Below are positions 1-34,615 of a DNA stretch of 64,000 nt, piece after piece. Positions within the stretch are counted from its first letter, which is position 1, and each line of letters opens with the position of its first letter. A program made the translations under genes and the position numbers. Under the pieces are notes generated by a model. It saw only the letters and a list, made by a program, of their open reading frames with translations. It searched no databases and had not been told where the DNA came from. Location of the stretch: the NCBI GenBank assembly GCA_016214055.1, contig JACRPE010000011.1:793-64792 (forward strand). Direction: 5' to 3'. Source of the stretch: Candidatus Roizmanbacteria bacterium (GTDB lineage: Bacteria > Patescibacteriota > Microgenomatia > UBA1406 > GWC2-37-13).

Positions 1-1285
1 ACTTATTGGGGACACGTTCAAGGGTGGATATCTTCTCCTCAATAGTTTTCTTCTGCCCCATAAGCTGGTTCTTCTTGGTAAGGTAATCTTCACGGCTCAC
101 TACATTGTCAAGGTAGGAGTCTAGGAGGTTATTCAACTTATCCTTCCTATTGAGGAGATCTACTTTAAACCCTTGAACGTGTTCCCCCGTATCTGACCTT
201 TGAATGTGCTCATCCTTTGCCATTCTTTTGATGAGCCATTCATGGTCGGATGCGGACAAAGAAACTTTTTGGATATGGTGGTTTAACTGTGCAGTTAAAA
301 TCTCTTGACGGATGAACGGTTGGGAACAGGAGGCAAACCTCCTTTTCTTGGTACAGCGGTAGTAGATAAAGTCTTGACTATGGCCGACTGTTTCATAGCG
401 CCTAAAGTGGTGCTCAGCCGTTATCATCATCCCGCATTCCCCACAGCGTAAAAGGCCGGTAAAGGGAAAGTCAAGAGATTTTAAGGGGAAAACATGAGTC
501 CTTCTTTTGATAACCGCCTGTACCTCATCATATAGTTTCTTTGTGATAAGTGGCTCGTGGATTCCTTGATATATCTCCTTGTTAAAGCGAAAATACCCGA
601 AGTAGAAGGGGTTTGAGAGAATAAAGGTAACTCGACTGTTATGAATATATTTACCACCGCGGGAAACAATACCTTTACTTTTCAACATATTACTCAGACT
701 CTCAAAGGTCGAGTTACCTTTTGCATAAGTTTCAAATAATTCCTTCACAATAGGGGCGACTTTGGGATCCAGAAGAATCTTTTTGTTTAATCTATCATTT
801 ACATATCCCAAAGGAGCCTGACCAGGACACTCCCCCTTCCTTACCTTTTGTCTCAAACCCCTTTTGGTATTTTCGCTCAAGGAATCCACATAGTATTTGC
901 TTTGCCCAAAGGCAATTGACAACATGAAAAGTCCCTGAGGGGTGTTTTCAAACCAGAAAGTCGGAAACTTGAGGTCAACCAGGATATTGCGGTCAAGAAG
1001 ATACACAATACGACCGGCATCAACTGCGTTACGGGCAAGCCTATCCGGGTGCCAGGCCAAAATACCTTGAGCTTCGCCCTTCTCAACTTTACCCATCATC
1101 TGGTTAAAGATATCACGACCTGGAACCTTGGCAGTTTTGGACTCGATAAAGATGTCAGCTATATTTAACCCTTCCTTTTGGGCAAAGGTGCGAAGCTCAT
1201 CTATTTGGGCCGGGATGGAGAGAAGCTGGCGCTCCTCATCATCGGTCGACTTTCTGGCATAGAGAAAATAGGAGGGACTTTTCAT
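1..1285 (-). CDS. Large serine recombinase (resolvase N-domain + recombinase domain + Cys-rich ribbon); C-terminus runs off the left edge of the window
   Basis: Absent from the ORF track because it is open to the edge. My reverse-strand translation from the ATG (complement of 1283-1285) reads MKSPSYFLYARKSTDDEERQLLSIPAQIDELRTFAQKEGL..ILAWHPDRLARN..GLRQKVRKGECPGQAPLGY..LRCGECGMMITAEHH..YYRCTKKRRFASC with no stop to position 1. The YxRxS catalytic-serine motif, the DRLxR motif and the Cys ribbon are typical of large serine recombinases. Confidence 0.85.
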   Translation of the reverse strand, partial: MKSPSYFLYARKSTDDEERQLLSIPAQIDELRTFAQKEGLNIADIFIESKTAKVPGRDIFNQMMGKVEKGEAQGILAWHPDRLARNAVDAGRIVYLLDRNILVDLKFPTFWFENTPQGLFMLSIAFGQSKYYVDSLSENTKRGLRQKVRKGECPGQAPLGYVNDRLNKKILLDPKVAPIVKELFETYAKGNSTFESLSNMLKSKGIVSRGGKYIHNSRVTFILSNPFYFGYFRFNKEIYQGIHEPLITKKLYDEVQAVIKRRTHVFPLKSLDFPFTGLLRCGECGMMITAEHHFRRYETVGHSQDFIYYRCTKKRRFASCSQPFIRQEILTAQLNHHIQKVSLSASDHEWLIKRMAKDEHIQRSDTGEHVQGFKVDLLNRKDKLNNLLDSYLDNVVSREDYLTKKNQLMGQKKTIEEKISTLERVPNK

Positions 1286-1814
1286 GTGAGCATATTAAAA
1301 AAATGTCTATTTATACAAAATAATACTACTCCTCCAACTACGATTTTCAATACCAAAACTGAATTGGTTATTGGAGTAGTACGTACTAAGTACAGATGGG
1401 ATAACGGAGGAGTCATAATCTGACATTTTTTTAATGGAAATACGGAGTATTTCATTGCCTTTGGGCAAAGACTCCCCCTTTGGGGGGAGAAAAGGATAAA
1501 ATCGCGTTATTTTACTTAAAATAGAGGTAATTATGAAGCTCTAAAAGGGGGGACAATGAAAATCTTTTGAAAAAAAACCCTAAAGATGAGGTTTGAGAAT
1601 AGTTGATTGTGACCTTCCGGAGCAATGGGCGGCACTTCGTGCCGCCCCGACAACTCGCAATCGGGAGCGATTATACCAAATCGTTCGAACCTATTTTGTC
1701 AAAAACATTTAATATCACAATTATACCTATGTTTTTGACCGATTGCGACAATTCGCTTTGATTTTTGCGACATGGCGAACTTCAGATGACGGGAACTGAA
1801 GACATTTCCTGTTT

Positions 1815-1860
1815 GGGGGGCGGGGGCATTTGGGGGCGGGGGCATTGGGGGCGGCATTTT
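1815..1860 (+). repeat. G-rich tandem repeat, about 3 units of GGGGGCGGGGGCATT(T)
   Basis: Read directly: ggggggcgggggcattt gggggcgggggcatt gggggcggcatttt. The last 13 nt (gggggcggcattt, 1847-1859) recur as an exact reverse complement inside 11769-11791. Confidence 0.8.
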
Positions 1861-1886: not shown

Positions 1887-2936
1887 TTATCTTTTATGAT
1901 TTATACCATTCTGTCTCAAAAAAGTAGGAATATTAAGATCAGTTAATTGGTTTGAATAGGTTTTATCTTTTAATGAATCTATACTATCCATATCGGTCGC
2001 AATTACCGTGACTTTTATTTTTCCTTTCATTTCTTCATCAATCGTAAGACCAAACTTAATATTGGCATTCTTATTGGCAGATTGTGTAATAATGCTGGCA
2101 ATCTCATTTGTTTCTGCCATTCCTAAGTTTTTGTCACTGGTGACATTAAATATGATGTTTCTTGCTCCAGTGATTGAATTGTTAGTTAGAGGGAAGGAAA
2201 ATGCCTGTTCTATAGCTTGTTTTGATCTCTCTTCTATAGTCCCGCTCCCAACTCCTTCCCCAATGAAACCGAAAGATTTATTATCCATCATTGATTTAAG
2301 ATCCGCTAAATCTATGTTTATATGCTCGGCTACTTGGATGATCTCGGCAATAATATTAATACTTTGGTGAAGAGCTATTTTAATTTGTCCAAAAGCTTTA
2401 GTTACAAGCGTTCCTTTTTTGATATTCTCGAATATTCTTTGTTTATTTACTACAATCGTTGTTCCAGCGCTTTGTTTAATAAGCTTTAATCCTTTTTCAG
2501 CTGCAAGCATTCTTTTCTTACCTTCAAGTTTAAAAGGCATTGTTACAACGGCAATAACTAAAGCACCACATTCACGTGCAATATCAGCTACGACAGGAGT
2601 AATACCCATACTAAATCCTTTCCCCACATTACAAGTAATGAAGAGAATATCAGTATCAATCAAGTTTTTTTTAATTACCTCTTTATTATCTAGAGCGATT
2701 TCTCTCCATTTTTGAGAGCTATCTTCTGTTGTTGTGCTATTATCAATTTTATCTGCCAAATCAATACTAGTTATATTGACATTATGCTCTAAACTGTTCT
2801 TTTTGGGAGCAATAGTTGGGAAGTTAATATCACTAAACTTGTTTGACAACGCCATTTCCTGCACGGTTTGTTGACCAAAACCTCCAATGCCAATCACTGT
2901 AATTGTTGGTATTTTATTACCTAGTTTAACTAACAT
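1887..2936 (-). CDS. FtsZ/tubulin-family paralogue with a degenerate GTP-binding signature
   Basis: Collinear with the FtsZ core as I recall the E. coli sequence. TDILFITCNVGKGFSMGITPVVADIARECGALVIAVVTMPFKLEGKKRM aligns with [49 protein letters not shown]. The T7-like NIDLAD and the C-terminal LNIPTFLRQ (compare DIPAFLRKQ) are kept, but GGGTGTG has become GKGFSMG and GGGGGN has become GGFGQQ. Confidence 0.8.
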   Translation of the reverse strand: MLVKLGNKIPTITVIGIGGFGQQTVQEMALSNKFSDINFPTIAPKKNSLEHNVNITSIDLADKIDNSTTTEDSSQKWREIALDNKEVIKKNLIDTDILFITCNVGKGFSMGITPVVADIARECGALVIAVVTMPFKLEGKKRMLAAEKGLKLIKQSAGTTIVVNKQRIFENIKKGTLVTKAFGQIKIALHQSINIIAEIIQVAEHINIDLADLKSMMDNKSFGFIGEGVGSGTIEERSKQAIEQAFSFPLTNNSITGARNIIFNVTSDKNLGMAETNEIASIITQSANKNANIKFGLTIDEEMKGKIKVTVIATDMDSIDSLKDKTYSNQLTDLNIPTFLRQNGINHKR

Positions 2937-2964
2937 ATTTTTTCTTGCTGTACGAATAGGTTAT

Positions 2965-3357
2965 TTATATCATTTCCTCAACAACTTTTACTACTTTTTT
3001 AGCAAATTCATCATAATTACGGATATCTTTTTGTACAATTTTGGTAACTCCTCTTTTTTGAGCAGCTTCATTATGTTGGGGAACCGCAGAAATACTAATG
3101 ACCTTATCAGAGCCAAACCTTTCAAAATTAAGGTTGTGAAATGAATCGTTTAACTTACAATCCCTATCAAGAATGATAATGTCAAAGTTGGCTTTAGGAT
3201 TATTGTTTATATAATCTTCAACTTGGGTATAATCGGTCAAAATAACTAAGGATAGCGCATATGGTTGTTCTTGTTCAAGAAGCTCAAAATTAGCTAATAA
3301 TTTGGATAAAACAAGGAGGTTATCTTCGAGAATGAGGATTCTTTTTAGGAGGATCAT
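2965..3357 (-). CDS. Stand-alone CheY-like receiver domain protein
   Basis: 130 aa. ILILEDN (acidic pair), DIIILDRD (phospho-acceptor Asp position), VISISAV (Ser/Thr position) and IVQKD (Lys position) occur in receiver order. It lies 28 nt upstream of the FtsZ-like gene on the same strand. Confidence 0.65.
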   Translation of the reverse strand: MILLKRILILEDNLLVLSKLLANFELLEQEQPYALSLVILTDYTQVEDYINNNPKANFDIIILDRDCKLNDSFHNLNFERFGSDKVISISAVPQHNEAAQKRGVTKIVQKDIRNYDEFAKKVVKVVEEMI

Positions 3358-3502: not shown

Positions 3503-5272
3503 ATGGCGCTAACAAAAAAATATAACAACTACTCAAGAGAGGAATTAATAAACGAGTTAGAAAGTTTAAAAAGGAAGAAATATGGACTTGTGTGGGATAA
3601 AAAAAACTCACAAGAAAATCTTGATGTCTTTGTGAATTGGGAAAATATGCCTGAAAAATTTGTCCCAAAGCAATTTCCTGTTTTGAAAGAAATAACAGAT
3701 AAGGAAATTAAAACAGAATCAGACAAACCAACCAATATCTTGATAGAGGGGGATAATTATCATTCTCTCGCTGTTTTGAATTTTACCCACCAAAAGAAAA
3801 TTGATGTTATCTATATTGATCCACCTTATAATACCGGAAACCAAGATTTTATTTATAACGATAAATTTATTGATAAGGAAGATCCGTTTAGACACTCAAA
3901 ATGGCTTTCTTTTATGGAAAAACGGTTGAGATTGTCTTTTAAACTTTTAAAAAATACCGGAGTTATTTTTATTTCAATCGATGATAATGAACAAGCGCAA
4001 CTAAAACTTTTATGTGATGAAATTTTTGGAGAGGATAATTTCATTGCAAATATTTCCAGACGAACAAAATCAGCTGGTAAAACTACTGAAACAATCGCAT
4101 CAAATCATGACTATGTTGTAATTTATTCTAAAGATAGGCAAAAAGTTAAATTTAGCTCTATTTTTATTGATGACAGCGCTTACAAGCATAAAGATGAATA
4201 TTATTCTGAGAGAGGGCCATACGCATTATCACAAACCTTAGATTATGACAGTTTGTCTTACAGCGATTCACTAGATTATGAACTAAAGCTCAATAATCAG
4301 CTTCATTACCCTGGCGGAGACAAAAAAGTTTTTTTAGAAAGAAAAGGCGGAAAACATAGAGCATCAGATTGGACGTGGCGATGGGGAAAAGAACTTGTTG
4401 AATTTGGCAACAAACAGGGTTTTGTTGTTGTAAAAAAAGGAAAGAACGGCAAACCAAGAATATATACAAAGACATATTTCAAGGTTGTTATTGAAAAGGT
4501 TAATGGAAAATACACGATTGTCCCAATAGTCAGAACTAAAAACTTATCTACATTAGATTTAATGGAGTCTTCATATTCAAATGATGTTTCAAAAAAAGAT
4601 ATTCGATCAATTTTTGGTAATTATGCTGAATTTGCTTATCCAAAACCATTGTCATTGTTGAAGTACTTAATAAATACTATACCTAATCAAAATAATTCAA
4701 TTATTTTAGACTTTTTTACTGGCTCTGGTACAACAGGACAAGCAGTTTTGGAGCTTAACAAAGAAGATAAAGGAAATCGTAAATTTATCCTCTGCACGAA
4801 TAACGAAAATAACATTTGCACCGATGTTTGTTATCCTCGCATTGAAAAAGTAATAAATGGCTACAAAAATTCAAAAGGTGAAAAAGTTGCCGGCCTGGGT
4901 GGGAGTTTAAAATATTTCAAAACAGATTTTGTTGGTTCTGATTCAACCGATAAAAACAAACGGGGTTTGGTGAATAAGTCGGCTGAAATGATTTGTATTA
5001 AAGAAGATATTTTTGATTTAGTGGTTGACAATGGGCAAGATTTCAAAATCTTTCAAAAGGGTAAAAAGTTTTTGGGCGTAATTTACAACCTTGACGCTAT
5101 AACAGATTTCAAAAAAGAAGCAGAAAAATTCAAAGGTAATTTTGTGATTTATTGTTTCTCCTACACAGAAACAACTCCTGAAAAAGAATTTAAGGGCCTC
5201 AAAAATAAATATATATTGAAGCCGATTCCTGCGGTTATTTTACGCATTTATTTGGAAATTTTCAAAAAATAG
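3503..5272 (+). CDS. mod: Type III R-M DNA methyltransferase (Mod, beta-class N6/N4 MTase)
   Basis: IDVIYIDPPYNTGNQDF (motif IV) comes before FFTGSGTTGQAV (motif I), which is the beta-class order. The next gene, Res, starts 3 nt downstream. Confidence 0.85.
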   Translation: MALTKKYNNYSREELINELESLKRKKYGLVWDKKNSQENLDVFVNWENMPEKFVPKQFPVLKEITDKEIKTESDKPTNILIEGDNYHSLAVLNFTHQKKIDVIYIDPPYNTGNQDFIYNDKFIDKEDPFRHSKWLSFMEKRLRLSFKLLKNTGVIFISIDDNEQAQLKLLCDEIFGEDNFIANISRRTKSAGKTTETIASNHDYVVIYSKDRQKVKFSSIFIDDSAYKHKDEYYSERGPYALSQTLDYDSLSYSDSLDYELKLNNQLHYPGGDKKVFLERKGGKHRASDWTWRWGKELVEFGNKQGFVVVKKGKNGKPRIYTKTYFKVVIEKVNGKYTIVPIVRTKNLSTLDLMESSYSNDVSKKDIRSIFGNYAEFAYPKPLSLLKYLINTIPNQNNSIILDFFTGSGTTGQAVLELNKEDKGNRKFILCTNNENNICTDVCYPRIEKVINGYKNSKGEKVAGLGGSLKYFKTDFVGSDSTDKNKRGLVNKSAEMICIKEDIFDLVVDNGQDFKIFQKGKKFLGVIYNLDAITDFKKEAEKFKGNFVIYCFSYTETTPEKEFKGLKNKYILKPIPAVILRIYLEIFKK

Positions 5273-5274
5273 CT

Positions 5275-7527
5275 ATGTTGATGAATTTGCAATTAAAACA
5301 GTACCAAGACGAAAAAGTCGAGGAGTTAAAAAATAAAATTAATGAGCTTCTAGAATTGGACGGAAGTAAACTTTGTATTTTTGAAGCACCGACCGGCTCT
5401 GGAAAAACAATTATGGTTGGTGAGTTTTTAAAACGACTTGTCAATCCTCTCGACCGTGAGGACGAAAAACAATTTTCTGTTATTTGGATTTCTGTTCGAG
5501 ATTTACATAACCAAAGTAAAAAATCTTTAGAAAAGAATTTTGAAAATGTTTTTTGTTATTCACATTTTGAGGATTTACAGAATAATATTATTGGTAAAAA
5601 TGAAATTTTATTTTTAAACTGGGAAAAGATTTATAATCAGGATCGAATTTATATCCGTGATAACGAAAAAGGTAAAAATCTTTCTCATATTATTGAAAAC
5701 ACCAAGCAAACAGGACGAGAAATTATATTAATCGTTGATGAAAGTCATCATACAAATTTAGGCCCAAATGCCACAAAAGTGCGGGCAGATATTTCTGCTA
5801 AGATTACTCTAGAGGTTTCTGCAACACCCATATTCCATGACCCTGACGGCCATATAAAAGTACATTTTGAGAAAGTTGTTGCAGAAGGAATGATAAAAAA
5901 AGAAGTTGCTATCAATCCTGAATTTGAAAAATTAAAAGTAGACGGAAAAAGTAGTCGCGAAATGGTAATTGAAGCGACAATTGAAAAGCAAAAAAAACTC
6001 CTAAAGTACTACAAGGACGAAGGAAGTGATGTAAACCCACTTGTACTAATCCAATTACCCAATTTACAGAAAGGTATTAATGATTTAGACAAAGATGTTT
6101 TAACTGATGTTCAAAAAATACTCAAAAGAAAATATGATATTACCGAAGATAATGAACGCCTCGCAATCTGGCTTGCGGACAATAAAACACCCAACTTGGT
6201 AAATATTGAAAAATCTACAAATGATGTTGAAGTCCTCATTTTTAAACAAGCAATTGCACTTGGTTGGGATTGCCCCCGTGCCCAAATTTTGGTAATTTTT
6301 AGAGAAACCGAAAGTAAAGTTTTTTTACTACAAACAGTTGGACGAATTATGAGAATGCCCGAATATCATCATTATCAAGGCCACCCTGAATTGAATAAGG
6401 CTTATGTTTTTACAAATATTGGAGTAAATGAAATAAAACTCGGTGATGAAATTGCAAAAGAATACTTTACTATTCAAGAGGCAAAAAGAAATGACAAAGT
6501 TTATAAAGATTTAAGTTTGCCGTCAATTCATTTTATACGTCAACGCGAAAAAACAAGACTGTCAGGTGAATTTTCAAAAATCTTTATGGATATTGCAGAG
6601 AAGTTAAATTTAAAAAATAAATTGAATATAAAGAAAAATGAAATCTCTAAGGAAATAATTGTTAACGGTAAGATAATCAACATTGATAAAGCACGAACAA
6701 TTGAGCATTCAATAATGAATTATCACTCGCCTGATGTAGAAATACAGATGTATTATGATTTATTTTGCAAAGCCAGCACGGGCGAGTTTGCACCATTTGA
6801 TTCAATGGATCGTATAAAAAGTGCTCTTAACAAATTCTTTACGAGGGTAATGGGATTTGAAAATGACGACCCCGCTTTTTATAAAGTTATTCTAAACCCA
6901 GATAATATTGGGAAAGTTAACGAAGCTTTGACAACGGCAAGGGAAGAATATAAAAGAACTGTTGTAGCACAAGATGAAGAAAGAGAAATGGAAAGTTTAG
7001 TTTGGAATCTACCTAAAATTATTAGCTACAACAGTAATTATAAAGCGAGAAGTTGTAAAAAATCAATAATGGTTCCCTATTATTCAAGATATACGAACAA
7101 TAATCAGACTACTTTATTTGGTGGTTATGGGGAGGACAGTAAAGTTGAAACTGATTTTATAAATTATCTTGATAATGCTAATAAGGTTGAATGGTGGTTT
7201 AAGAATGGGAGAGGTGAGGCTAATTATTTTGCCGTTCCATATGTTGATAAATATGGAAAGAGCTCGGCTTTTTATGTTGATTTTGTTGTGTATTTAAAGA
7301 ATGGCGAAGTTTGGCTTTTGGATACTAAGAAAGGCCAAACCGCTGAAAGTGCTAAAGAACGAGCAGAAGGATTGGCAAAATATATCAAAGATCAGAAAAA
7401 GAAAGGCAAAAAACTTTTTGGGGGAATCGTGATACCTGTTGACGGCCGGTGGAGATATAATGATGATGAAAAGTATGAATATAATTCAAATGAGTTGAAG
7501 GATTGGAAATTTTTGGATTTGAATTGA
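5275..7527 (+). CDS. res: Type III restriction endonuclease subunit (Res; helicase + C-terminal PD-(D/E)xK)
   Basis: FEAPTGSGKT (helicase motif I), IVDESHH (motif II) and a C-terminal FYVDFVVYLKNGEVWLLDTKKG nuclease-like motif. Coupled to mod. Confidence 0.8.
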   Translation: MLMNLQLKQYQDEKVEELKNKINELLELDGSKLCIFEAPTGSGKTIMVGEFLKRLVNPLDREDEKQFSVIWISVRDLHNQSKKSLEKNFENVFCYSHFEDLQNNIIGKNEILFLNWEKIYNQDRIYIRDNEKGKNLSHIIENTKQTGREIILIVDESHHTNLGPNATKVRADISAKITLEVSATPIFHDPDGHIKVHFEKVVAEGMIKKEVAINPEFEKLKVDGKSSREMVIEATIEKQKKLLKYYKDEGSDVNPLVLIQLPNLQKGINDLDKDVLTDVQKILKRKYDITEDNERLAIWLADNKTPNLVNIEKSTNDVEVLIFKQAIALGWDCPRAQILVIFRETESKVFLLQTVGRIMRMPEYHHYQGHPELNKAYVFTNIGVNEIKLGDEIAKEYFTIQEAKRNDKVYKDLSLPSIHFIRQREKTRLSGEFSKIFMDIAEKLNLKNKLNIKKNEISKEIIVNGKIINIDKARTIEHSIMNYHSPDVEIQMYYDLFCKASTGEFAPFDSMDRIKSALNKFFTRVMGFENDDPAFYKVILNPDNIGKVNEALTTAREEYKRTVVAQDEEREMESLVWNLPKIISYNSNYKARSCKKSIMVPYYSRYTNNNQTTLFGGYGEDSKVETDFINYLDNANKVEWWFKNGRGEANYFAVPYVDKYGKSSAFYVDFVVYLKNGEVWLLDTKKGQTAESAKERAEGLAKYIKDQKKKGKKLFGGIVIPVDGRWRYNDDEKYEYNSNELKDWKFLDLN

Positions 7528-7550: not shown

Positions 7551-8144
7551 TCAAGAATTAGATTTTACGATTTCTTCTTTTTGTAATCTTCGGAGCATTA
7601 GGCCAGTAGATACATGAAATACTTCTGATAGATCCTCTAAAAGTAGAAGAATGGATTCTAAAGATGCTTGATTGGGAATATTTCCGACCAGACGTTTTAT
7701 TTCTGAAAAAAGTAATTTTTTTGGTACTAAAACTTGATTGGCAAAACTGTAGGCTTGATATTCTAGCCAACCATATTCATCTTCATCTACGTTGTTTAGA
7801 AAATCACCTAATTTAACAGTTGAACTTATTTGTAATTTACTTAATATTTTACCATGCAAAATTAGATGACCTATTTCGTGGGCAATAGAACACCTTGCCC
7901 TATTTTCAAACTTGTTGTAAATATCAAAATCAATAAAAATAGTTGACAAATCAGAAGTTAAGAAACTTTCTACGTCAAAATCCTTTTTTAAGTTAAATTC
8001 TTCATAAATTTTTAAATTGAGTTTTGATTCTGCAATTTGTTCTATAGGAATAGGTAATTTTAATTGAGGATAATTTAAGGTTAGGAATTGATCGGCTATA
8101 TTACCGATCTGTTGATATGTAAGACGTGGCAGATTAAGTTTCAT
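7551..8144 (-). CDS. ImmA/IrrE-family Zn metallopeptidase
   Basis: HEIGHLILH (HExxH) sits in a 197-aa protein. Its start overlaps the stop of the upstream XRE gene by 1 nt (TGATG). Confidence 0.8.
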   Translation of the reverse strand: MKLNLPRLTYQQIGNIADQFLTLNYPQLKLPIPIEQIAESKLNLKIYEEFNLKKDFDVESFLTSDLSTIFIDFDIYNKFENRARCSIAHEIGHLILHGKILSKLQISSTVKLGDFLNNVDEDEYGWLEYQAYSFANQVLVPKKLLFSEIKRLVGNIPNQASLESILLLLEDLSEVFHVSTGLMLRRLQKEEIVKSNS

Positions 8145-8533
8145 CAGCTATTTATCAGTTTAATTAAATCTTGAAGTTTCTTTTTCGTTAGCTTTTTACC
8201 ACGGGCAGTACGAAATACTAAAGGTAAATATTTCATCGCTTCTTCGTGATTTAAAATGTCCGATGGAATTCTCCCTTTTGCTGTATTAGCCAGATCGAAA
8301 AAAGTTACCCAGTCAGATGAGCCTCTTGTTATTTTTAGTGCTGTCGCATAACCGGATAATTTTTCTTCATCTAAGGTTGGAGGTAAAATATTTCGCTCTA
8401 ACCGACTAACATTACCAGGGTCGAGCTGGTATTGTTTACAAAACGATCTTAAAGTAAACCCCAAGGCAATTCTTTTTTGTCGAAAAAACTCTCCAAATGC
8501 AATTAATTGTGATTCCCCTTGATTTTTTTTCAT
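8144..8533 (-). CDS. XRE-family helix-turn-helix regulator (ImmR-like partner of ImmA)
   Basis: FGEFFRQKRIALGFTLRSFCKQYQLDPGNVSRLERN is HTH_3-like. Translationally coupled to the ImmA-like gene. Confidence 0.7.
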   Translation of the reverse strand: MKKNQGESQLIAFGEFFRQKRIALGFTLRSFCKQYQLDPGNVSRLERNILPPTLDEEKLSGYATALKITRGSSDWVTFFDLANTAKGRIPSDILNHEEAMKYLPLVFRTARGKKLTKKKLQDLIKLINS

Positions 8534-8622: not shown

Positions 8623-8853
8623 ATGGCTAATTATAGCGTTGTTAAAAATCCAGATGGGGGTTGGGATTCAAAACGGGACAAAGCTTCTCGAATAAGTTCA
8701 CATAGCGATACCCAAAAAGAGGCCGAGGCATATGCAAAAAAATTTTCAGCAAATTCTGGGGGCGGAGAAGTACGGATTCACGGGCTTGACGGTAAAATTC
8801 GAGACAGTGATACAGTTCCACCCGGAAATGATCCTTTTCCACCGAGAGGATAA
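8623..8853 (+). CDS. DUF2188-like small protein
   Basis: 76 aa: VVKNPDGGWDSKRDKASRISSHSDTQKEAEAYAKKFSANSGGGEVRIHGLDGKIRDS matches my memory of the DUF2188 pattern. A GAAGGTGAG SD-like sequence lies upstream. Confidence 0.55.
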   Translation: MANYSVVKNPDGGWDSKRDKASRISSHSDTQKEAEAYAKKFSANSGGGEVRIHGLDGKIRDSDTVPPGNDPFPPRG

Positions 8854-17328: not shown

Positions 17329-17405
17329 GCCCTTGTAGCTCAATTGGATAGAGTAGTGGCTTCCGAAGCCATTGGTTGGGGGTTCAAGTCCCTCCGGGGG
17401 CACCA
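17329..17405 (+). tRNA. tRNA-Arg (anticodon CCG), CCA encoded
   Basis: Hand-folded cloverleaf: gcccttg/cgggggc acceptor, gctc/gagt D stem, gtggc-ttccgaa-gccat, ggggg-ttcaagt-ccctc, then A-CCA. Confidence 0.85.
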
Positions 17406-17426
17406 TAAACACCAGGGTTTACCCTG

Positions 17427-17462
17427 AAAATGTTTGCTAAAAAGCAAGTTAGCAAACATTTT
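17427..17462. repeat. Palindromic hairpin AAAATGTTTGCTAA-N8-TTAGCAAACATTTT (terminator-like)
   Basis: Perfect 14-bp arms. The same arms recur at 18355-18414. Confidence 0.75.
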
Positions 17463-17464
17463 TA

Positions 17465-17535
17465 GGGCCTATAGTTAAGTGGTATACCGCGTCATTCGCA
17501 TTGACGAGTCGCCGGTTCAATTCCGGCTAGGTCCA
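17465..17535 (+). tRNA. tRNA-Ala (anticodon CGC)
   Basis: gggccta/taggtcc acceptor with G3:U70, cgtca-ttcgcat-tgacg anticodon arm, gccgg-ttcaatt-ccggc T arm. The D stem is weak and the variable loop is 4 nt. Confidence 0.75.
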
Positions 17536-17622
17536 CCGTAAAAGTTGCCTCCTTTTACGGTGTAAACACCACACTGGAAATATAAATCGGCTAGATTTTG
17601 TATAATGATGAGCGTTAAAGTC

Positions 17623-17694
17623 GCGTCTGTAGCTCAGTGGTAGAGCGCTACTCTTATAAAGTAGATGTCCTTGGTCCGACCCCAAGCAGACGCA
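17623..17694 (+). tRNA. tRNA-Ile (anticodon UAU)
   Basis: gcgtctg/cagacgc acceptor, gctc-agtggta-gagc, ctact-cttataa-agtag, cttgg-tccgacc-ccaag. The T loop reads TCC rather than TTC. Confidence 0.7.
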
Positions 17695-17715
17695 CATACG
17701 GTATAATAGTCAAAT

Positions 17716-17774
17716 GCTGAGGTAGGGCTCCGAGTCGGAGCCTGGTCCCGCCGTCCGAATCGGACGGCACGGCG
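17716..17774 (+). repeat. Copy A of a tRNA-derived repeat (5' portion only)
   Basis: gctgaggta-gggctccgagtcggagcc-tggtc-ccgccgtccgaatcggacggcacggcg is nearly identical to the first ~58 nt of the element at 18247-18351, then diverges into the GIY-YIG gene leader. Confidence 0.75.
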
Positions 17775-17803
17775 AAAGGTTGTTAAGATTGTTAAAATAG
17801 AGT

Positions 17804-18058
17804 ATGTTTTTTACATATATTTTACAATCAGAAAAAGATAAGAAGCTGTATATTGGCTTTACTGATAATGTTGAAAAGAGATTGGAAGAGCATAATGAAG
17901 GTATAAATATTTCAACAAAATCACGAGCACCTTTTAAATTATTGTATTACGAAGCACTGCCAACCAAAGAAGAGGCTTTGCGAAGAGAAAACTTTTATAA
18001 GTCAGGAAGAGGACACGAAGTCATTTATAAAATTTTATTTAAATCACTACTGAGGTAG
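17804..18058 (+). CDS. Small GIY-YIG (URI-domain) nuclease family protein
   Basis: FFTYILQSEKDKKLYIGFTDNVEKRLEEHNEG..ALRRENFYKS has the GIY/YIG, R and E core motifs. Its stop codon TAG lies inside repeat copy B. Confidence 0.8.
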   Translation: MFFTYILQSEKDKKLYIGFTDNVEKRLEEHNEGINISTKSRAPFKLLYYEALPTKEEALRRENFYKSGRGHEVIYKILFKSLLR

Positions 18059-18082
18059 GGCTCCGAGTCGGAGCCTGGTCAC
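18050..18082 (+). repeat. Copy B of the tRNA-derived repeat (33 nt)
   Basis: ctgaggtagggctccgagtcggagcctggtcac is identical except 1 nt to 17717-17749 and to 18248-18280. Confidence 0.8.
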
Positions 18083-18106
18083 GGTAGTGATCACTGTAAT
18101 GTTATT

Positions 18107-18179
18107 GCTGAGGTAGCCAAGGTGGTCACGGCGGAGGTCTGAAAAACCCCAGATGTCAGTTCGACTCTGACCCTCAGCA
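18107..18179 (+). tRNA. tRNA-Phe-like (anticodon GAA), 73 nt
   Basis: gctgagg/cctcagc acceptor, gcc-aaggtggtcac-ggc D arm (3 bp), gaggt-ctgaaaa-acccc (one A-C mismatch), gtcag-ttcgact-ctgac T arm, discriminator A. Confidence 0.6.
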
Positions 18180-18246
18180 CAGCTTATATAAAACGTTCAA
18201 GAGTTATATAGGATAGAGTATAACCAAGGATTTTCGCATTATTTAG

Positions 18247-21031: not shown

Positions 21032-21103
21032 GCGGTGGTAGTTCAACGGTAGAACGTCTCCTTGCCAAGGAGAAGGTTGAGGGTTCAAATCCCTTCCGCC
21101 GCT
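21032..21103 (+). tRNA. tRNA-Gly (anticodon GCC)
   Basis: gcggtgg/ccgccgc acceptor, gttc-aacggta-gaac, tctcc-ttgccaa-ggaga, gaggg-ttcaaat-ccctt. Confidence 0.85.
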
Positions 21104-21221
21104 CAAAATGGAGATCAGAGCTTTCCTGGGCCCCTTTTTTTACGGGAAGGAAGGCCAAAATTAAAATATGAGAAACTCAAGAATAGCTCTGGTAGGATAG
21201 AAGGCTATGGATTGAAAATAT

Positions 21222-24370: not shown

Positions 24371-25576
24371 CTATTCATACCTGATCGCATCAATAGGCGA
24401 AAGATCTGCCGCTTTTTTTGCCGGAAATACACCGAATATAATTCCGATTACTGAGGAAACACCGAGCGCAAGTATCACCGAATTCACATCAATGTAGGCG
24501 GGGAAAAAATTATGAATGAAGTATACGATGATGTAAGCCAAGCCCAACCCCATCAATCCCCCAAGGAGTGAGAGCGCTACTGACTCAACAAGAAACTGCA
24601 TCAATATATCCTCTTTCCGTGCTCCAAGTGCACGACGAATGCCAATTTCTTTTATCCGCTCCGTAACCGTGACGTACATAATGTTCATGATTCCTATTCC
24701 TCCCACCACAAGCGAAACAGCGGCGATTGCCACAAGTACCGTATTCAACATCCCAAATATTGACTCGATTGCGCCCAGCAGTTCAGCTTGGTCAATAACC
24801 GAAAAATCATCCTCTTTATAACGCTTGAGGAGTGCATTTTTTAATTCCAATTTTGCATCAGCTATTGCGATGTCACTTTTAGATTGCACGATGATTGCAT
24901 AAAATTTTTTATCCGGGTTGAATACTTGGGCGGTAGTATGTGGCATGTAAATAAATGAGTCAAGATCGGGACCCCCAAATCCCCCGCCCCCTTTTGCGTC
25001 CAGTACTCCCATCACCCGAAATGATTGACCTTCTACTTTTATGTTTCGCCCTAGTGCCTGATCTTCAGTAGTAAAAAGCTTTGCCGCAATTTTGGGACCA
25101 ATGACTACAATCTTGCTCCTTTTTTCCACATCGTTTTTGGTAAAAAGTTCTCCATATTTTGCCTTCAGATTGAGCGCAATAAATACATCAGCAGTACTCG
25201 CATACAAATTTGCCCCCTCAGTTCCCTTACCGATTGAGACTGTGATTGATTTGGAAATAACCGGAATCACATTCTTGGCGCTTCTCACTCTTTGGAGACG
25301 GGCCACATCTTTTGCATCAAATCGGATGGTGCTGAGACTGCCCGTTGAGCTGAAGCTCCCCCCCTTGAGTATCTGGCCGGGCACCACCCGTATCAGATTA
25401 GAACCGAGGCTTTGGAATTGGTCGTTGATATATTTTTTTAAACCGAGTCCAAACGCAATGAGGATGACAACCGATAATACTCCGATGAGGATTCCCAGCG
25501 AAGTCAGGAATGTCCTCCCCTTATTCCGGGAAAAATCCTGAAAGGCCGAATTTATGACAAAAATAAAATGGTTCAT
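24371..25576 (-). CDS. ABC transporter permease, MacB/FtsX family
   Basis: N-terminal TM, large periplasmic domain, then a C-terminal FtsX-like 3-TM bundle with RIKEIGIRRALGARKEDI. Confidence 0.8.
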   Translation of the reverse strand: MNHFIFVINSAFQDFSRNKGRTFLTSLGILIGVLSVVILIAFGLGLKKYINDQFQSLGSNLIRVVPGQILKGGSFSSTGSLSTIRFDAKDVARLQRVRSAKNVIPVISKSITVSIGKGTEGANLYASTADVFIALNLKAKYGELFTKNDVEKRSKIVVIGPKIAAKLFTTEDQALGRNIKVEGQSFRVMGVLDAKGGGGFGGPDLDSFIYMPHTTAQVFNPDKKFYAIIVQSKSDIAIADAKLELKNALLKRYKEDDFSVIDQAELLGAIESIFGMLNTVLVAIAAVSLVVGGIGIMNIMYVTVTERIKEIGIRRALGARKEDILMQFLVESVALSLLGGLMGLGLAYIIVYFIHNFFPAYIDVNSVILALGVSSVIGIIFGVFPAKKAADLSPIDAIRYE

Positions 25577-27335: not shown

Positions 27336-28416
27336 TGATGGGCATCACATTATACGCGAGAAAATTCCATGTGTACATATATATTCCGATAATCATGATG
27401 AGAAAAATAATGATAAACTTTTTTGAAGAGAAAAAACTTTCAAAGGCAATGCATGCAAGGGGCCAAAGAGGAAGGCTGTACCGGCTGATATCCCGGTGTT
27501 GCACAAAAAGGGTTGCGGTCCAAAAAAGAAGACTGAAATAAAAAAAACTACGATACTTACTGTCCTTCAATTGATATACAGTCAGTCCATATAGGAAGAA
27601 ATAAAATAATACATCCTCAAGCCACGCGGTACCAATCCATGATTTCCCGAAATCAAACACCGAAAAAGGGGCTACAAGATGGATATTATCACCCGAGTGA
27701 AAGTAGGCAAGAAAATCTCCCGTTTGATTCGCATAGAATAAACAAACAAGGAGAAAACCAGCGGGAATAAGGAATATCCATATCCATGACAGCTTTAATT
27801 TTTTTGTTTTTATAAACCGTTCAACAAATACAAATCCATAGGCCGCAAAAAGGATAAGTCCCGGAGTTTTGGTCATAACCGACAGCCCTCCCAGTAATCC
27901 CGCGAGTAAGTATTTTTCCTTTTCGAAGAAATAAAGTGAGGTTAGGATGAGAAACAGAAATAATGACTCGGGAGCTCCGACTGACCGGACCACCAAAAAC
28001 CGGGGAAGGAAGAGAAAAAGTGAGACGATGAGGAGTGGGTACTTGGTGAGATTGAATTTCTTGAGAAAAAAATAAAAAAGCATGGCAAGTAGGCCGGTAA
28101 AGAAAACATTCACCGCAAGCATAGATTTCAAATATCCAAATACAGGCGCCGTAAGCCGGATAAGAAACGGATAAAGAGGGAGATGTGCGGTAAAGTAGAG
28201 TGGGTTTTGTGAGAGACTGCTGTCACGGTTTATAGCTTCAATATCCTTCGGAACATACATCGATTTAGCCGCAATGATATAGTTTGGACCGTCAAAATTC
28301 TTGTAAACGGTGAGGAAGTTTGATGTTTTCAAAATAAACGGCATCCATACAAGTAACGTGCTTGTTAAAACAACGAGAAGTAAGGTAAAATAGGGTATGA
28401 AACGCTTAAAATCCAT
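27313..28416 (-). CDS. Polytopic GT-C-like membrane protein
   Basis: About 11 hydrophobic helices. The start is placed at MDFKRF (28416), although the track ORF extends to 28506. Confidence 0.45.
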   Translation of the reverse strand: MDFKRFIPYFTLLLVVLTSTLLVWMPFILKTSNFLTVYKNFDGPNYIIAAKSMYVPKDIEAINRDSSLSQNPLYFTAHLPLYPFLIRLTAPVFGYLKSMLAVNVFFTGLLAMLFYFFLKKFNLTKYPLLIVSLFLFLPRFLVVRSVGAPESLFLFLILTSLYFFEKEKYLLAGLLGGLSVMTKTPGLILFAAYGFVFVERFIKTKKLKLSWIWIFLIPAGFLLVCLFYANQTGDFLAYFHSGDNIHLVAPFSVFDFGKSWIGTAWLEDVLFYFFLYGLTVYQLKDSKYRSFFYFSLLFWTATLFVQHRDISRYSLPLWPLACIAFESFFSSKKFIIIFLIMIIGIYMYTWNFLAYNVMPINEWLPFL

Positions 28417-29869
28417 AGGCGCGTGGCTCAAAAAAAATAAGTTTGTTGCTCTTATTATACTATGCGCGGTCTTCATGCGCATGTGGCGTTTGGGCGATTT
28501 TGCCATGTTTTTGGCTGATCAAGGGCGGGATGCTATCATCATCAAACGCATTGTCATGCTTGAGCACTTTCCCCTCATTGGGCCCCCAAGCTCCATTGGA
28601 CAAGTTTATCTTGGACCATTTTTTTATTATTTGGTTGCGCCTTTTCTTTTCCTGTTTGCGTTAAACCCTGCTGGCTTAGCCTTTGGAGTATCATTTCTTT
28701 CAATTGTTGGTATAGTATTGGGATATTATATCGTCAGAAAAGTCTTAAAAGAAAAGGTTGCATTGGTCTTCTTGGTCCTTTGCACCTTTTCCTATCAGCT
28801 TATCTGGGCCGCCCGCTTTTCCTGGAATCCTAACCTGCTTCCTGTCTTTGCGTTTTTTACACTCTATTTTTTTTACAAGGCGCTTGAAACAAAAAAGATA
28901 GTGTATTCCTTTCTCTACGGTGCATTCTTCGCGCTCTCCTTCCAGCTTCACCATCTCGCCGCATTCTTAGGAGCACCTATTGTTCTCACATTTATATATC
29001 AATTCATAACCGAAAAGAAAAAAATCCCATTATTATTATCTCCTTTCATTGCGGTTGCTTCTTTTCTCCTGATTTCCTCTCCCCTTATCATCTTTGATTT
29101 AAAACACGATTTCTTAAACACCAAAAATCTCATCTCTCTTTTTACCCAGCAAAATGTGGTGGCGGGGGGATCTCCACTTGCAAGACTGCTTGAAACAAAT
29201 CATGCGTTTTGGTCCACCATACTTCAACGGTCGTACTCCCAAATGTTTTCAACTGCATTGGGAGTCATGTTTTTCGCGGCGCTCATTTTCTTGTGGATGA
29301 GGAAGAAGGATTTATTTGTATTAATACATACCATAAATTTCTTTTCTTTTATTTATCTCTTCAGTATCCTCAGCAGTGCAAGATATCCTCATTATTACGG
29401 CACGGCCTATTTGAGTTTTTTTGTTTTGTGTGCATATCTTCTCGCCTCTGTTCCTAAAAAAGCATACACAACGGCAGTGTTGGGATTTGTGATAAGTGCG
29501 TATATCGCGCTCAATGCCAAACAATACTCATTCATAACCGGTCAAACGAGTAATCAGATTGTATTTGCCCAACGTATAGCCGAGTCCCTTGCTCCCCGCA
29601 TCGATAATAAACCCTTTAATTTTGCCACCTACCCCATTGAGTTCACCAGCGAAGATACGTTTCTCTATTTTCTGGAAAAACAGGGGTTGAAGACAGCAAA
29701 TCGGGAAGCAAAAGAAGTGACCGACCAGATGTATGTCCTTTGCGACCGAGAACCCTGCCGGATACTTGATTCACATTCATGGAATATCGAAATATTTGGG
29801 AAAGCAAAAATTGATACAATGTGGGAAGTTTCCGGAGTCAAAATTTACCGATTGGTCCATGAAAAATAA
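28397..29869 (+). CDS. GT-C (ArnT/PMT-like) membrane glycosyltransferase candidate
   Basis: 490-aa polytopic protein, RMWRLGDFAMFLADQGRDAI after TM1. Confidence 0.55.
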   Translation: MKRLKSIGAWLKKNKFVALIILCAVFMRMWRLGDFAMFLADQGRDAIIIKRIVMLEHFPLIGPPSSIGQVYLGPFFYYLVAPFLFLFALNPAGLAFGVSFLSIVGIVLGYYIVRKVLKEKVALVFLVLCTFSYQLIWAARFSWNPNLLPVFAFFTLYFFYKALETKKIVYSFLYGAFFALSFQLHHLAAFLGAPIVLTFIYQFITEKKKIPLLLSPFIAVASFLLISSPLIIFDLKHDFLNTKNLISLFTQQNVVAGGSPLARLLETNHAFWSTILQRSYSQMFSTALGVMFFAALIFLWMRKKDLFVLIHTINFFSFIYLFSILSSARYPHYYGTAYLSFFVLCAYLLASVPKKAYTTAVLGFVISAYIALNAKQYSFITGQTSNQIVFAQRIAESLAPRIDNKPFNFATYPIEFTSEDTFLYFLEKQGLKTANREAKEVTDQMYVLCDREPCRILDSHSWNIEIFGKAKIDTMWEVSGVKIYRLVHEK

Positions 29870-30617
29870 TATGACGGTTTCCCTTATTATCCCCGCGTAC
29901 AACGAAGAGGTAAATATCCAAAAAGGGGTATTGGATAAAATCAGTAACTTTACCAAAGAACATCCTGAGTTTTCGGAAGTTATCATCGTGGATGACGGAT
30001 CAACAGATGATACGAAAAACCTAATTAAGAGGGAATACACGCAGAGGTTTTCTCATTTCCGGCTTATTGAAAATAATCATGCCGGAAAAGCACAAGCAAT
30101 CATAACCGGTATAAAAGAGGCAAAATCAGACATTGTGATGTTTACTGATATTGATTTGGCGACCCCGATTGAAGAAGGTGAGAAGTTACTCAATGCGCTG
30201 AAGGATACCTATGACATAGCAATCGGATCCCGCAATACCCATCGTGAAGGAGCGCCTCTGCTCCGAAAAATTATGGCGGTTGGTTTTATTTTTATCCGCA
30301 ACTCTCTCATCGGGTTAAATAATATCAAAGATACTCAATGTGGCTTTAAGGCTTTTGAAAGAAAAGCCGCCTTAAAGATCATTGATAAACTTCAGGTTTT
30401 TAATAAACAGTCCTCAATCACCGGCTCATCGGTGAAGGCGGGATTTGATTTGGAGTTTTTATTTGTGGCCATTAAGTTAGGCTATAAGATTAAAGAAATT
30501 CCCGTCACCTGGAAACACGTTGAAACGAAAAATGTAAACTTTTTCCGTGACTTTATCGATACGATGAAGGATATCCTTGCCATCAAGTACTATGACCTTA
30601 CCAAAAAGTACGATTAA
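29859..30617 (+). CDS. GT2 polyprenol-phosphate glycosyltransferase (DPM1/GtrB-like)
   Basis: VSLIIPAYNEE, VIIVDDGSTDDT, FTDIDLATP, QCGFKAF. The start is taken at MKNNM. Confidence 0.8.
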   Translation: MKNNMTVSLIIPAYNEEVNIQKGVLDKISNFTKEHPEFSEVIIVDDGSTDDTKNLIKREYTQRFSHFRLIENNHAGKAQAIITGIKEAKSDIVMFTDIDLATPIEEGEKLLNALKDTYDIAIGSRNTHREGAPLLRKIMAVGFIFIRNSLIGLNNIKDTQCGFKAFERKAALKIIDKLQVFNKQSSITGSSVKAGFDLEFLFVAIKLGYKIKEIPVTWKHVETKNVNFFRDFIDTMKDILAIKYYDLTKKYD

Positions 30618-34589: not shown

Positions 34590-34615
34590 TGGTATTAATG
34601 GTATAATAAGGACAT

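Follow-up and report, generated by a model that had tools for sequence, protein, structure and literature searches.

A 64,000-nt stretch of a Candidatus Roizmanbacteria genome (contig JACRPE010000011.1, positions 793 to 64,792; hereafter the window) carries a gene for a 349-residue FtsZ-like protein. Its fold and its domain matches place this protein in the FtsZ family, but in signature, model score and genomic context it departs from a housekeeping FtsZ. The gene is under purifying selection and represents a rare accessory cargo of integrative islands, rather than the division gene of the lineage. Sequence comparison shows that the phosphate/guanine pocket has been rebuilt in a new, selected form, and the T7 synergy loop and the C-terminal anchor peptide have been retained. 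A protein of this kind might associate with the FtsZ of the host and damp or redirect the dynamics of the Z ring for the island, a reading that we put forward tentatively and weigh below against its rivals.

The exact protein is registered at NCBI as HZC27_02615 and labelled hypothetical, from a metagenome-assembled genome of the Candidate Phyla Radiation (CPR)/Patescibacteria. The protein matched the Pfam models Tubulin (59.7 bits) and FtsZ_C (77.5 bits), both over their gathering cut-offs, and its residues 2-317 aligned with solved FtsZ structures at an E-value of ~1e-50 and ~33% identity. The AlphaFold2 (AF2) model had a mean predicted local distance difference test score (pLDDT) of 83.8, with the minimum over residues 41-70, i.e. 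the T2/T3 region. When the model was searched with Foldseek, S. aureus FtsZ was the best match, with a template modelling (TM) score of 0.93 and a root mean square deviation of 2.1-2.3 Å. By Pfam and by AF2/Foldseek, the two-domain FtsZ fold (GTPase domain plus FtsZ_C) is present, and no domain beyond the FtsZ core was found by Pfam in the 349 residues. The first-pass annotation, which was made from the letters of the window, had taken the protein for a genuine FtsZ-core homologue, and this was borne out by the two Pfam matches and by the alignment with the solved structures along the whole length. On the TIGR00065 ftsZ equivalog model, the protein scored 215.7 bits, under the curated cut-off of 295.2.

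To compare the motifs, an alignment was made of the family of the FtsZ-like protein, S. aureus FtsZ and a set of 150 canonical FtsZs, and positions at least 85% conserved in the canonical set were scored. In T1, GGGGNN has become GGFGQQ, with G22 changed to F (F, Y or V in the family) and N25 to Q (Q, R or K in the family); G22 also varies among canonical FtsZs, and the family places a bulky F, Y or V there. Each of N44, T45, D46 and Q48 in T2, and each of G68, G70, G72, P75 and G78 in T3, is substituted (S. aureus FtsZ numbering). In T4, GGGTGTG has become GKGFSMG (family form G[KR]GF[SG]xG), with substitution of G104, G107, T109 and G110. The loss of the GTP signatures in T1, T2/T3 and T4, which had been claimed before, thus agrees with the residue-by-residue alignment. 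For T6, a change of ND to NK had been reported; the contact is indeed substituted, but the register was one residue off, and the aligned change is PND to NKQ, in which the guanine-contacting N166 is now K. The change of D187 to K in H7 had been missed in that annotation. From these substitutions we strongly infer that canonical GTP binding is lost in the FtsZ-like protein, and the swapped-in Lys, Arg and Phe residues probably fill or repurpose the pocket.

Other parts of the FtsZ core are kept. These include E139 and R143 in T5 on the ribose side, the stacking F183 in H7 (F or Y), and N208, D210 and D213 in the NIDLAD sequence of T7 (S. aureus numbering). In the numbering of the FtsZ-like protein itself, the three T7 residues are N207, D209 and D212, and they are invariant both within the family and with respect to canonical FtsZ. 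Conserved canonical positions were kept at 28 of 59 sites in the N-terminal domain, compared with 17 of 28 in the C-domain. Likewise, the Pfam score of the GTPase domain was 166-169 bits for canonical FtsZs and 49-77 for the family, whereas the fall for FtsZ_C was smaller (123-125 against 58-84 bits). The C-terminal peptide resembles the FtsA/ZipA-binding tail of canonical FtsZ; the FtsZ of Curtissbacteria, for example, has DIPTFLRQ. The form IP[TSA]F[LVM]R was conserved in seven of the eight family members having a C-terminus. Hence the earlier claim that the T7 loop and the C-terminal peptide are kept was confirmed for both NIDLAD and DLNIPTFLRQ.

The family comprises ~9 sequences among 15 billion proteins. 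Members P0001-P0007 share 48-100% identity; after them comes a gap, since canonical FtsZs do not exceed 38%. When 1.84 billion cluster representatives were searched exhaustively with a profile, the only additions were P0242 and the fragment P0245, and no larger intermediate family between the FtsZ-like family and canonical FtsZ came to light. Three further high scorers (P0241, P0243 and P0244) were rejected as members, as they are tandem-duplicated canonical FtsZs carrying GGGTGTG.

Selection on this small family was evident. For the two closest pairs, dN/dS was 0.16 (window against P0002, dS 0.66) and 0.17 (P0005 against P0006). In the six aligned full-length members, the residues P44, W77, N103, F108, K165 and K186 are invariant, K294 is fixed too, G105, G107 and G111 of T4 are also invariant, and position 106 carries K or R throughout. 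The dN/dS of 0.16-0.17 and the conservation of the replacement residues themselves show the gene to be functional; a pseudogene in the course of erosion was rejected on the same two grounds. Conservation within the family peaks in T7, with a mean fraction of identical residues of 0.89 and 9 of the 12 positions from 203 to 214 invariant. T6 (0.83), T4 (0.81) and T1 (0.78) follow, all above the core average of 0.73; the C-terminal peptide reached 0.70, T3 0.58, T2 0.54 and the linker 0.46. The first-pass annotation had described the GTP pocket as eroded. This wording did not hold, as T1, T4 and T6 are remodelled and more conserved than the family as a whole, relaxation being confined to T2 and T3. 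The alignment thus points to relaxed gamma-phosphate-sensing loops (T2 and T3) beside a rebuilt phosphate/guanine pocket, which gains three basic residues and one aromatic.

We then asked where such genes reside. No member was found in 185,579 GTDB species-representative genomes, where the matches were distant canonical FtsZs, or in a pattern scan of IMG/VR. A tblastn search of GenBank phages gave no member, only ~30-36% matches at the identity level of canonical FtsZ, and the JGI metagenome contigs gave no new member, only the known P0003 contig. There was no PHROGs match and no PADLOC model match for either the FtsZ-like protein or the receiver-fold protein encoded next to it. Six independent contexts were recovered, namely the window together with the identical L001, L002, L003, L004-L009, L015/L016, and L017 (Table 1). 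The neighbours of the FtsZ-like gene differ in all six, and neither ftsA nor dcw genes lie beside it in any of them. A large serine recombinase is present in three of the six, and recognised defence genes (Type III or IIG restriction-modification (R-M), retron, PDC-S01, kinase) lie no more than two genes away in four of the six, a sample too small for statistics. Because the gene is absent from the species representatives, IMG/VR and phages, stands in variable contexts and has no ftsA or dcw genes beside it, it is an accessory cargo gene. The earlier annotation had likewise called it an accessory island gene rather than the housekeeping ftsZ, and the six variable contexts, the lack of dcw genes and the absence from 185,579 representatives uphold that view.

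These data also bear on the possibility that the protein is a divergent FtsZ that still binds GTP, either as the second chromosomal division FtsZ of some CPR bacteria or as the sole one here. A divergent second FtsZ has been reported in some CPR genomes (PMC9871819), E139 and R143 of T5 and the stacking F/Y of H7 are kept, and a search of the 64-kb window found no second or canonical ftsZ. However, the glycines and Thr of the GGGTGTG phosphate loop, the T2/T3 residues, N166 and D187 are all substituted, the score is below the TIGR00065 cut-off, the family is missing from the species representatives, and its neighbours are variable and lack dcw/ftsA, while the dcw context of FtsZ is conserved across CPR (PMC9871819). 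We therefore regard a GTP-binding division FtsZ as very improbable.

How the FtsZ-like protein might act can be considered in light of the canonical filament, in which the T7 loop of the upper subunit enters the GTP site of the lower subunit. The filament grows at its T7-exposing end, where the incoming monomer docks via the top face, which carries its GTP (PMC8936486, PMC9897490). The island gene encodes an FtsZ paralogue that is folded and under selection, whose pocket contacts are swapped and which would no longer bind GTP canonically. Since its T7 face is selected and its own top lacks nucleotide and T3, it would be expected to reach host FtsZ only via the GTP-loaded top face of the latter, on which its T7 face would dock. 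The target would be either the host FtsZ monomer, which would be sequestered because the top face is needed for elongation, or the non-growing end of a filament. The T7 face might also trigger GTP hydrolysis in the bound host FtsZ. The C-terminal tail would bind the same anchors as host FtsZ and would compete for FtsA-type membrane anchors. As a result, Z-ring dynamics would be damped or redirected to the benefit of the element. In this the protein would be analogous to plant ARC3, which is compared below. Division inhibitors encoded by prophages are common, e.g. lambda Kil (PMC3961180) and CbtA (PMC5624674). We infer both the hetero-association with host FtsZ/FtsA and its physiological outcome, and the proposal as a whole is plausible but falls somewhat short of probable.

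Several points weigh against this proposal. In E. coli, FtsZ mutants with a defective top interface and an intact bottom one are reported to be non-toxic, whereas bottom-interface mutants are toxic (PMC8936486, summarising Du 2018 and Redick 2005). Because of this non-toxicity, a protein with an intact T7 and a defective top is predicted to be a weak inhibitor unless it is abundant. At the positions of S. aureus F138 and M179 the family has L/I and V/L/F, which preserves the hydrophobic contacts of the top face; that face of the FtsZ-like protein may thus not be dead. In family member P0003 the tail is degenerate. A toxic brake would also be hard to reconcile with the lack of any conserved regulator, antitoxin or partner alongside the gene. 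The first-pass annotation had pictured a filament capper or division brake. Its basis in part stands, as the T7 loop and the tail are kept; but the end that would be capped is the non-growing one, and the E. coli top-interface mutants are reported to be non-toxic. A simple, potent capper is thus less obvious, and for the same reason a decoy becomes a serious rival.

Under the decoy explanation, the protein would be an inert stand-in that shows the T7 surface of FtsZ (plus the tail) and soaks up or reports division inhibitors from phages and other mobile elements, thereby guarding the Z ring or feeding a defence response. The nearby defence genes in four of the six contexts fit this idea, as does the fact that T7 is the most conserved surface. 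The T7 phage protein Gp0.4, SulA and MciZ bind the synergy-loop surface, and the monomeric top-face FtsZ mutants Q47K and L178E still worked as Gp0.4 partners (PMC13423816). The reported non-toxicity of top-interface mutants (PMC8936486) is the design expected for a sponge, and for conflict systems it has been suggested that inactive versions of cell-division domains capture viral proteins instead of the active copies (PMC7159879). A nucleotide-free protein would also need conserved pocket-filling residues for folding. On the other hand, blocking an inhibitor alone does not halt phage replication, the loci share no linked effector gene, no PADLOC model matches the gene, and a sponge would have no need for the strictly kept catalytic Asp residues or the FtsA-binding tail. 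Moreover, the contexts on which the idea is based are only six. On balance we consider a decoy rather unlikely, although it deserves attention.

The rebuilt pocket gives rise to two further possibilities, both of which we judge improbable. In the first, the pocket is repurposed, so that K/R106, K165, K186, F108 and W77 bind another anionic ligand such as a signalling nucleotide, or replace GTP.Mg by pairing with an acidic T7. If the latter were true, junctions with host FtsZ or with the protein itself would be nucleotide-independent and non-hydrolysable, and the protein could be a mobile-element poison or a gamma-tubulin-like nucleator of FtsZ filaments. In the second, the element builds an autonomous filament, nucleotide-independent or differently liganded, in which K/R106, K165 and K186 pair with the acidic T7 of the next subunit and which would position or partition the element, a task that TubZ and PhuZ perform with GTP. 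This would be consistent with the above-average conservation of both the remodelled pocket loops and T7, with the retained hydrophobic top-face contacts, and with the established occurrence of tubulin homologues on mobile elements, e.g. PhiKZ TubZ (PMC3678025). The AF2 model is also nearest the open, filament-type conformers of S. aureus FtsZ (TM score 0.93, against 0.82-0.86 for closed forms), but a conformer preference of AF2 is weak evidence. However, neither a conserved TubR-like adaptor gene nor conserved centromere-like repeats are found beside the FtsZ-like gene. Partition is unneeded because the elements are integrative (serine recombinase), there are no PHROGs, IMG/VR or phage-genome matches, and the FtsA-binding tail indicates the host divisome.

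The second gene of interest lies 28 nt upstream of the start codon of the FtsZ-like gene, in the same orientation, and in the window the two are probably co-transcribed. Its 130-residue product had been described as a stand-alone CheY-like receiver. No Pfam or NCBIfam match was obtained for it, but its AF2 model (pLDDT 91.7) has five strands and four helices in a CheY-like (beta/alpha)5 flavodoxin-like fold, with alpha3 replaced by a conserved loop, LDRDCK...SFH...E, which is invariant in its family. The top Foldseek matches in the PDB were the receiver (REC) domains of AtBRR, ComE, PmrA and HP1043, with E-values of 7e-5 to 1e-3 and TM scores of 0.6-0.7. A profile of 32 members gave weak PDB matches (E 0.19-1), all of them to REC domains, with D64 aligned to the phospho-acceptor Asp. 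In the same 32 members, E11-D12, D64, S90 and K110 are invariant and occupy the same places as in CheY, where strands beta1, beta3, beta4 and beta5 end. Thus the predicted fold and the pocket geometry both agree with the earlier description.

The view that the receiver is a paired partner controlling the FtsZ-like protein by a signal fared less well. The receiver family is large and independent, with at least 146 clusters of 57-100% identity, nearly all unnamed. It adjoins the FtsZ-like gene in two of the six contexts, being co-oriented in the window and convergent in L003, where the 3' ends overlap. Elsewhere, its neighbours include a SMODS cyclase with SLATT downstream, type IV secretion system genes and GIY-YIG genes (L010, L012, L014, L034-L039), and it is also present in serine-recombinase elements without the FtsZ-like gene. 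No kinase gene was found in the island, and no receiver homologue was found in IMG/VR. The receiver is hence an independent cargo module and not an obligate partner. Because it is not a dedicated partner, signal control of the FtsZ-like protein is unproven; the repeated adjacency of the two genes is suggestive without establishing such control.

The two genes do share a cargo hot spot. A common backbone with 57-85% identity was observed between L002 (4128-7545) and L034 (2636-5913; the L034-36 receiver loci), and it consists of an HTH_17 excisionase-like gene, a ~380-aa gene, a SpoVG-like gene and a ~470-aa gene. In Bacillus, SpoVG is a septation-related regulator. The cargo slot beside this backbone holds PDC-S01 and the FtsZ-like gene in L002, or the receiver and a 306-aa gene in L034. 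A recurring trio was also noticed, formed by a transmembrane protein ending CLRDxGL, the receiver and a ~200-aa Zn-ribbon protein (L012 7640-8969). L003 (3919-7688) repeats the trio but has the FtsZ-like gene as an insertion behind the Zn-ribbon gene, and L017 (2-1768) has the trio without the receiver, again with the FtsZ-like gene after the Zn-ribbon gene. In L015 and L017 the FtsZ-like gene is flanked by 143-aa genes, which have neither receiver homology nor a Pfam match. At L010 (3041-9962), on a 1-Mb CPR contig, an 836-aa Hsp70/MreB-like protein, a 547-aa unknown protein and an AAA ATPase adjoin the receiver, SMODS and SLATT; this gene set resembles the GTPase/Hsp70 conflict systems of Kaur et al.

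The features of the window itself are listed in Table 1. The segment from ~1.9 to 11 kb has a GC content of 0.30-0.34, compared with ~0.39 elsewhere in the window, and the FtsZ-like gene lies between the large serine recombinase and the Type III Mod/Res genes. A recombinase and a Type III R-M system as flanks had been proposed before, and both were recovered, by the phrog_95 match on the left and by Mod/Res on the right. The recombinase is homologous to those beside other family members (34% identity to that of L017 and 25% to that of L002), and recombinase, SNase and HTH_17 genes are in general homologous between loci, with SNase homologues near the FtsZ-like gene in L004 and L006. The retron-like RT_VI gene (E=7e-64) and its HTH_VI partner at L004 3033-4330, found in L006-L008 as well, converge on the FtsZ-like gene of P0002. 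The right side of the island in the window also holds an AbrB-like gene and two unknown genes, one of which has a HARE-HTH domain.

Table 1. Features of the window and of the related loci. Positions are those of the window; the last five rows list gene contexts of family members elsewhere.
Feature	Position	Strand	Remarks
Large serine recombinase/integrase	2-1294	-	Runs off the left edge of the window; phrog_95 integrase, E=8e-81
G-rich tandem motif, left arm of short inverted repeats	1805-1859		GGGGGCGGGGGCAT, two copies
FtsZ-like gene, predicted pseudo-GTPase	1887-2936	-	349 aa; HZC27_02615, labelled hypothetical
C-terminal peptide	1911-1940	-	DLNIPTFLRQ, residues 333-342; 7 more residues after
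T7 synergy loop	2295-2321	-	Residues 206-214, INIDLADLK
H7 K186	2379-2381	-	In place of the guanine-specifying Asp (S. aureus D187)
T6	2439-2447	-	Residues 164-166, NKQ; canonical PND/PNQ
T4 "tubulin signature" region	2595-2633	-	Residues 102-114, CNVGKGFSMGITP; canonical (A/S)GxGGGTGTGxxP
T1 loop	2865-2891	-	Residues 16-24, GIGGFGQQT; canonical GxGGGGxNA
Stand-alone CheY-like receiver-fold protein	2965-3357	-	130 aa; HZC27_02620
Type III restriction-modification	3503-7527	+	Mod 3503-5272, Res 5275-7527
CapP-like M78 peptidase and HTH (CapH-like) regulator	7551-8533	-	Peptidase 7551-8144, regulator 8144-8533
PDC-S16 candidate defence gene	8623-8853	+	76 aa; E=5.5e-24
SNase-family nuclease	10990-11490	-	Far end of the low-GC island
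C-rich right arm	11769-11790		22 nt; second arm 12554-12569
L002			Serine recombinase, Type IIG-like R-M, HTH_17, SpoVG-like gene, PDC-S01, then FtsZ-like gene
L003			mad6/PD-T4-6 type Ser/Thr kinase, Zn-ribbon gene, FtsZ-like gene, then convergent receiver homologue
L004-L009			FtsZ-like gene convergent with type VI retron reverse transcriptase and HTH_VI; SNase and HTH_17 nearby
L015/L016			Small terminase-like gene downstream of FtsZ-like gene
L017			Zn-ribbon gene, FtsZ-like gene, transmembrane protein, serine recombinase

The island had also been thought to be bounded by inverted repeats. Such repeats do exist: 1838-1859 pairs with 11769-11790 (22 nt, 91% complementary) and 1805-1820 with 12554-12569 (16 nt, 100%), and the arms roughly bracket the low-GC segment. 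However, the motif is only a brief run of G, repeated in tandem at 1813-1845, downstream of the FtsZ-like gene. A similar C-rich copy is present at 24972-24991, no comparable motif was found next to other family members, and the serine recombinase sits outside the bracketed segment. We therefore rejected the repeat as a boundary of the mobile element, given that it is short, G/C-rich and dispersed, with an extra copy at 24972, and is missing from the loci of the relatives. On the minus strand, a Pro-rich open reading frame (ORF) of 52 aa runs over the G-run motif (1699-1857); its reality is doubtful.

At the right edge of the island, a GC-rich (0.45-0.51), ORF-free stretch extends over 11650-12890, with a GC-rich hairpin at 11731-11790. 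It contains a tRNA-Ser(UGA)-like sequence without a D-arm (12683-12755), which ARAGORN calls a tRNA and which scored 31.9 bits on the Rfam tRNA-Sec model, below the gathering score. This stretch may be the remnant of an integration site. The remainder of the window holds tRNAs together with glycosyltransferase and polysaccharide genes. The tRNA cluster (17329-18180 and 21032-21104) includes a tRNA-Ile whose anticodon, UAU, is uncommon among bacteria (17623-17695). One co-oriented gene run at 28397-36130 contains at least three PMT_2-type glycosyltransferase paralogues, adjoined by a polysaccharide-biosynthesis (flippase-like) gene at 37835-39280.

Compared with known systems, the FtsZ-like protein resembles housekeeping FtsZ in its two-domain fold, length, ~32-38% identity, T5/T7 loops, H7 core, short linker and IPTFLR tail, and its N-terminus MLVK is similar to those of CPR FtsZs. 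It differs by the substituted GTP contacts of T2, T3, T4, T6, H7 and part of T1, by the sub-cut-off score, and by being island-borne and extremely rare. The divergent second FtsZ of CPR bacteria described by Santana-Molina et al. (2023) is likewise a divergent CPR copy, thought to derive from CPR FtsZ (PMC9871819); the comparison is made with its description, which gives neither motifs nor context.

Plant ARC3, which belongs to the chloroplast Min system, offers another parallel. The FtsZ-like protein, too, has an FtsZ-like domain without the tubulin signature; ARC3 is not known to bind GTP. It has an FtsZ-derived domain that is not a ring-forming GTPase and acts directly on FtsZ assembly; it inhibits the assembly of the Z ring directly and is reported to stimulate the GTPase of FtsZ2 (10.1101/2024.01.08.574726; PMC12232670, citing Shaik 2018). 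Unlike the FtsZ-like protein, which has no extra domains, ARC3 is eukaryotic, nuclear-encoded, multidomain (middle domain plus MORN) and not mobile. TubZ and PhuZ share with our protein the occurrence of an FtsZ/tubulin-superfamily member on mobile elements (PMC3678025). They are, however, active GTPases that form dynamic filaments, are far more diverged, have adaptors and lack the FtsA-binding tail, whereas the FtsZ-like protein has substituted GTP motifs and no PHROG, IMG/VR or phage relatives.

Interference with the Z ring by mobile elements or under stress is exerted by Gp0.4, lambda Kil, CbtA, SulA and MciZ (PMC13423816, PMC3961180, PMC5624674). These proteins are small and unrelated to FtsZ, and Gp0.4, SulA and MciZ bind the T7 face, whereas the FtsZ-like protein presents one. 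The inactive division domains of conflict systems (MinD/ParA, FtsK and rarely FtsZ/tubulin) are similar in being predicted inactive, in lying amid defence genes and in having been proposed as decoys or assemblies (PMC7159879). They are effectors of ternary systems, centred on MoxR-vWA or on a GTPase, in multicellular bacteria, while the FtsZ-like gene stands alone in CPR islands that have none of these core components beside it. In the literature we found no account of an FtsZ paralogue with such substitutions in mobile or defence islands, PMC9871819 and PMC7159879 being the closest.

To our knowledge, FtsZ targeting by mobile elements has so far been known only through small unrelated inhibitors, and FtsZ-derived regulators only from plastids (ARC3). 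The present family is very small, its hosts are uncultivated, and its function is a predicted one. If the pocket did form nucleotide-independent junctions, the family would represent a new mechanistic class of cytomotive-filament regulator in defence islands, alongside portable receiver modules; the receiver family is itself uncharacterised and highly conserved, and CPR mobile elements carry it as cargo. A conserved, mobile pseudo-GTPase with only the partner-facing T7 loop and the anchor tail left would amount to a "half-FtsZ" made by nature, from which one could learn how the polarity of filaments lends itself to braking, seeding or mimicking the Z ring. The recent proposal that phage-host conflict centres on FtsZ would be put to the test as well. 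CPR bacteria are not culturable alone, and the FtsZ-like family would offer a handle on their cell division.

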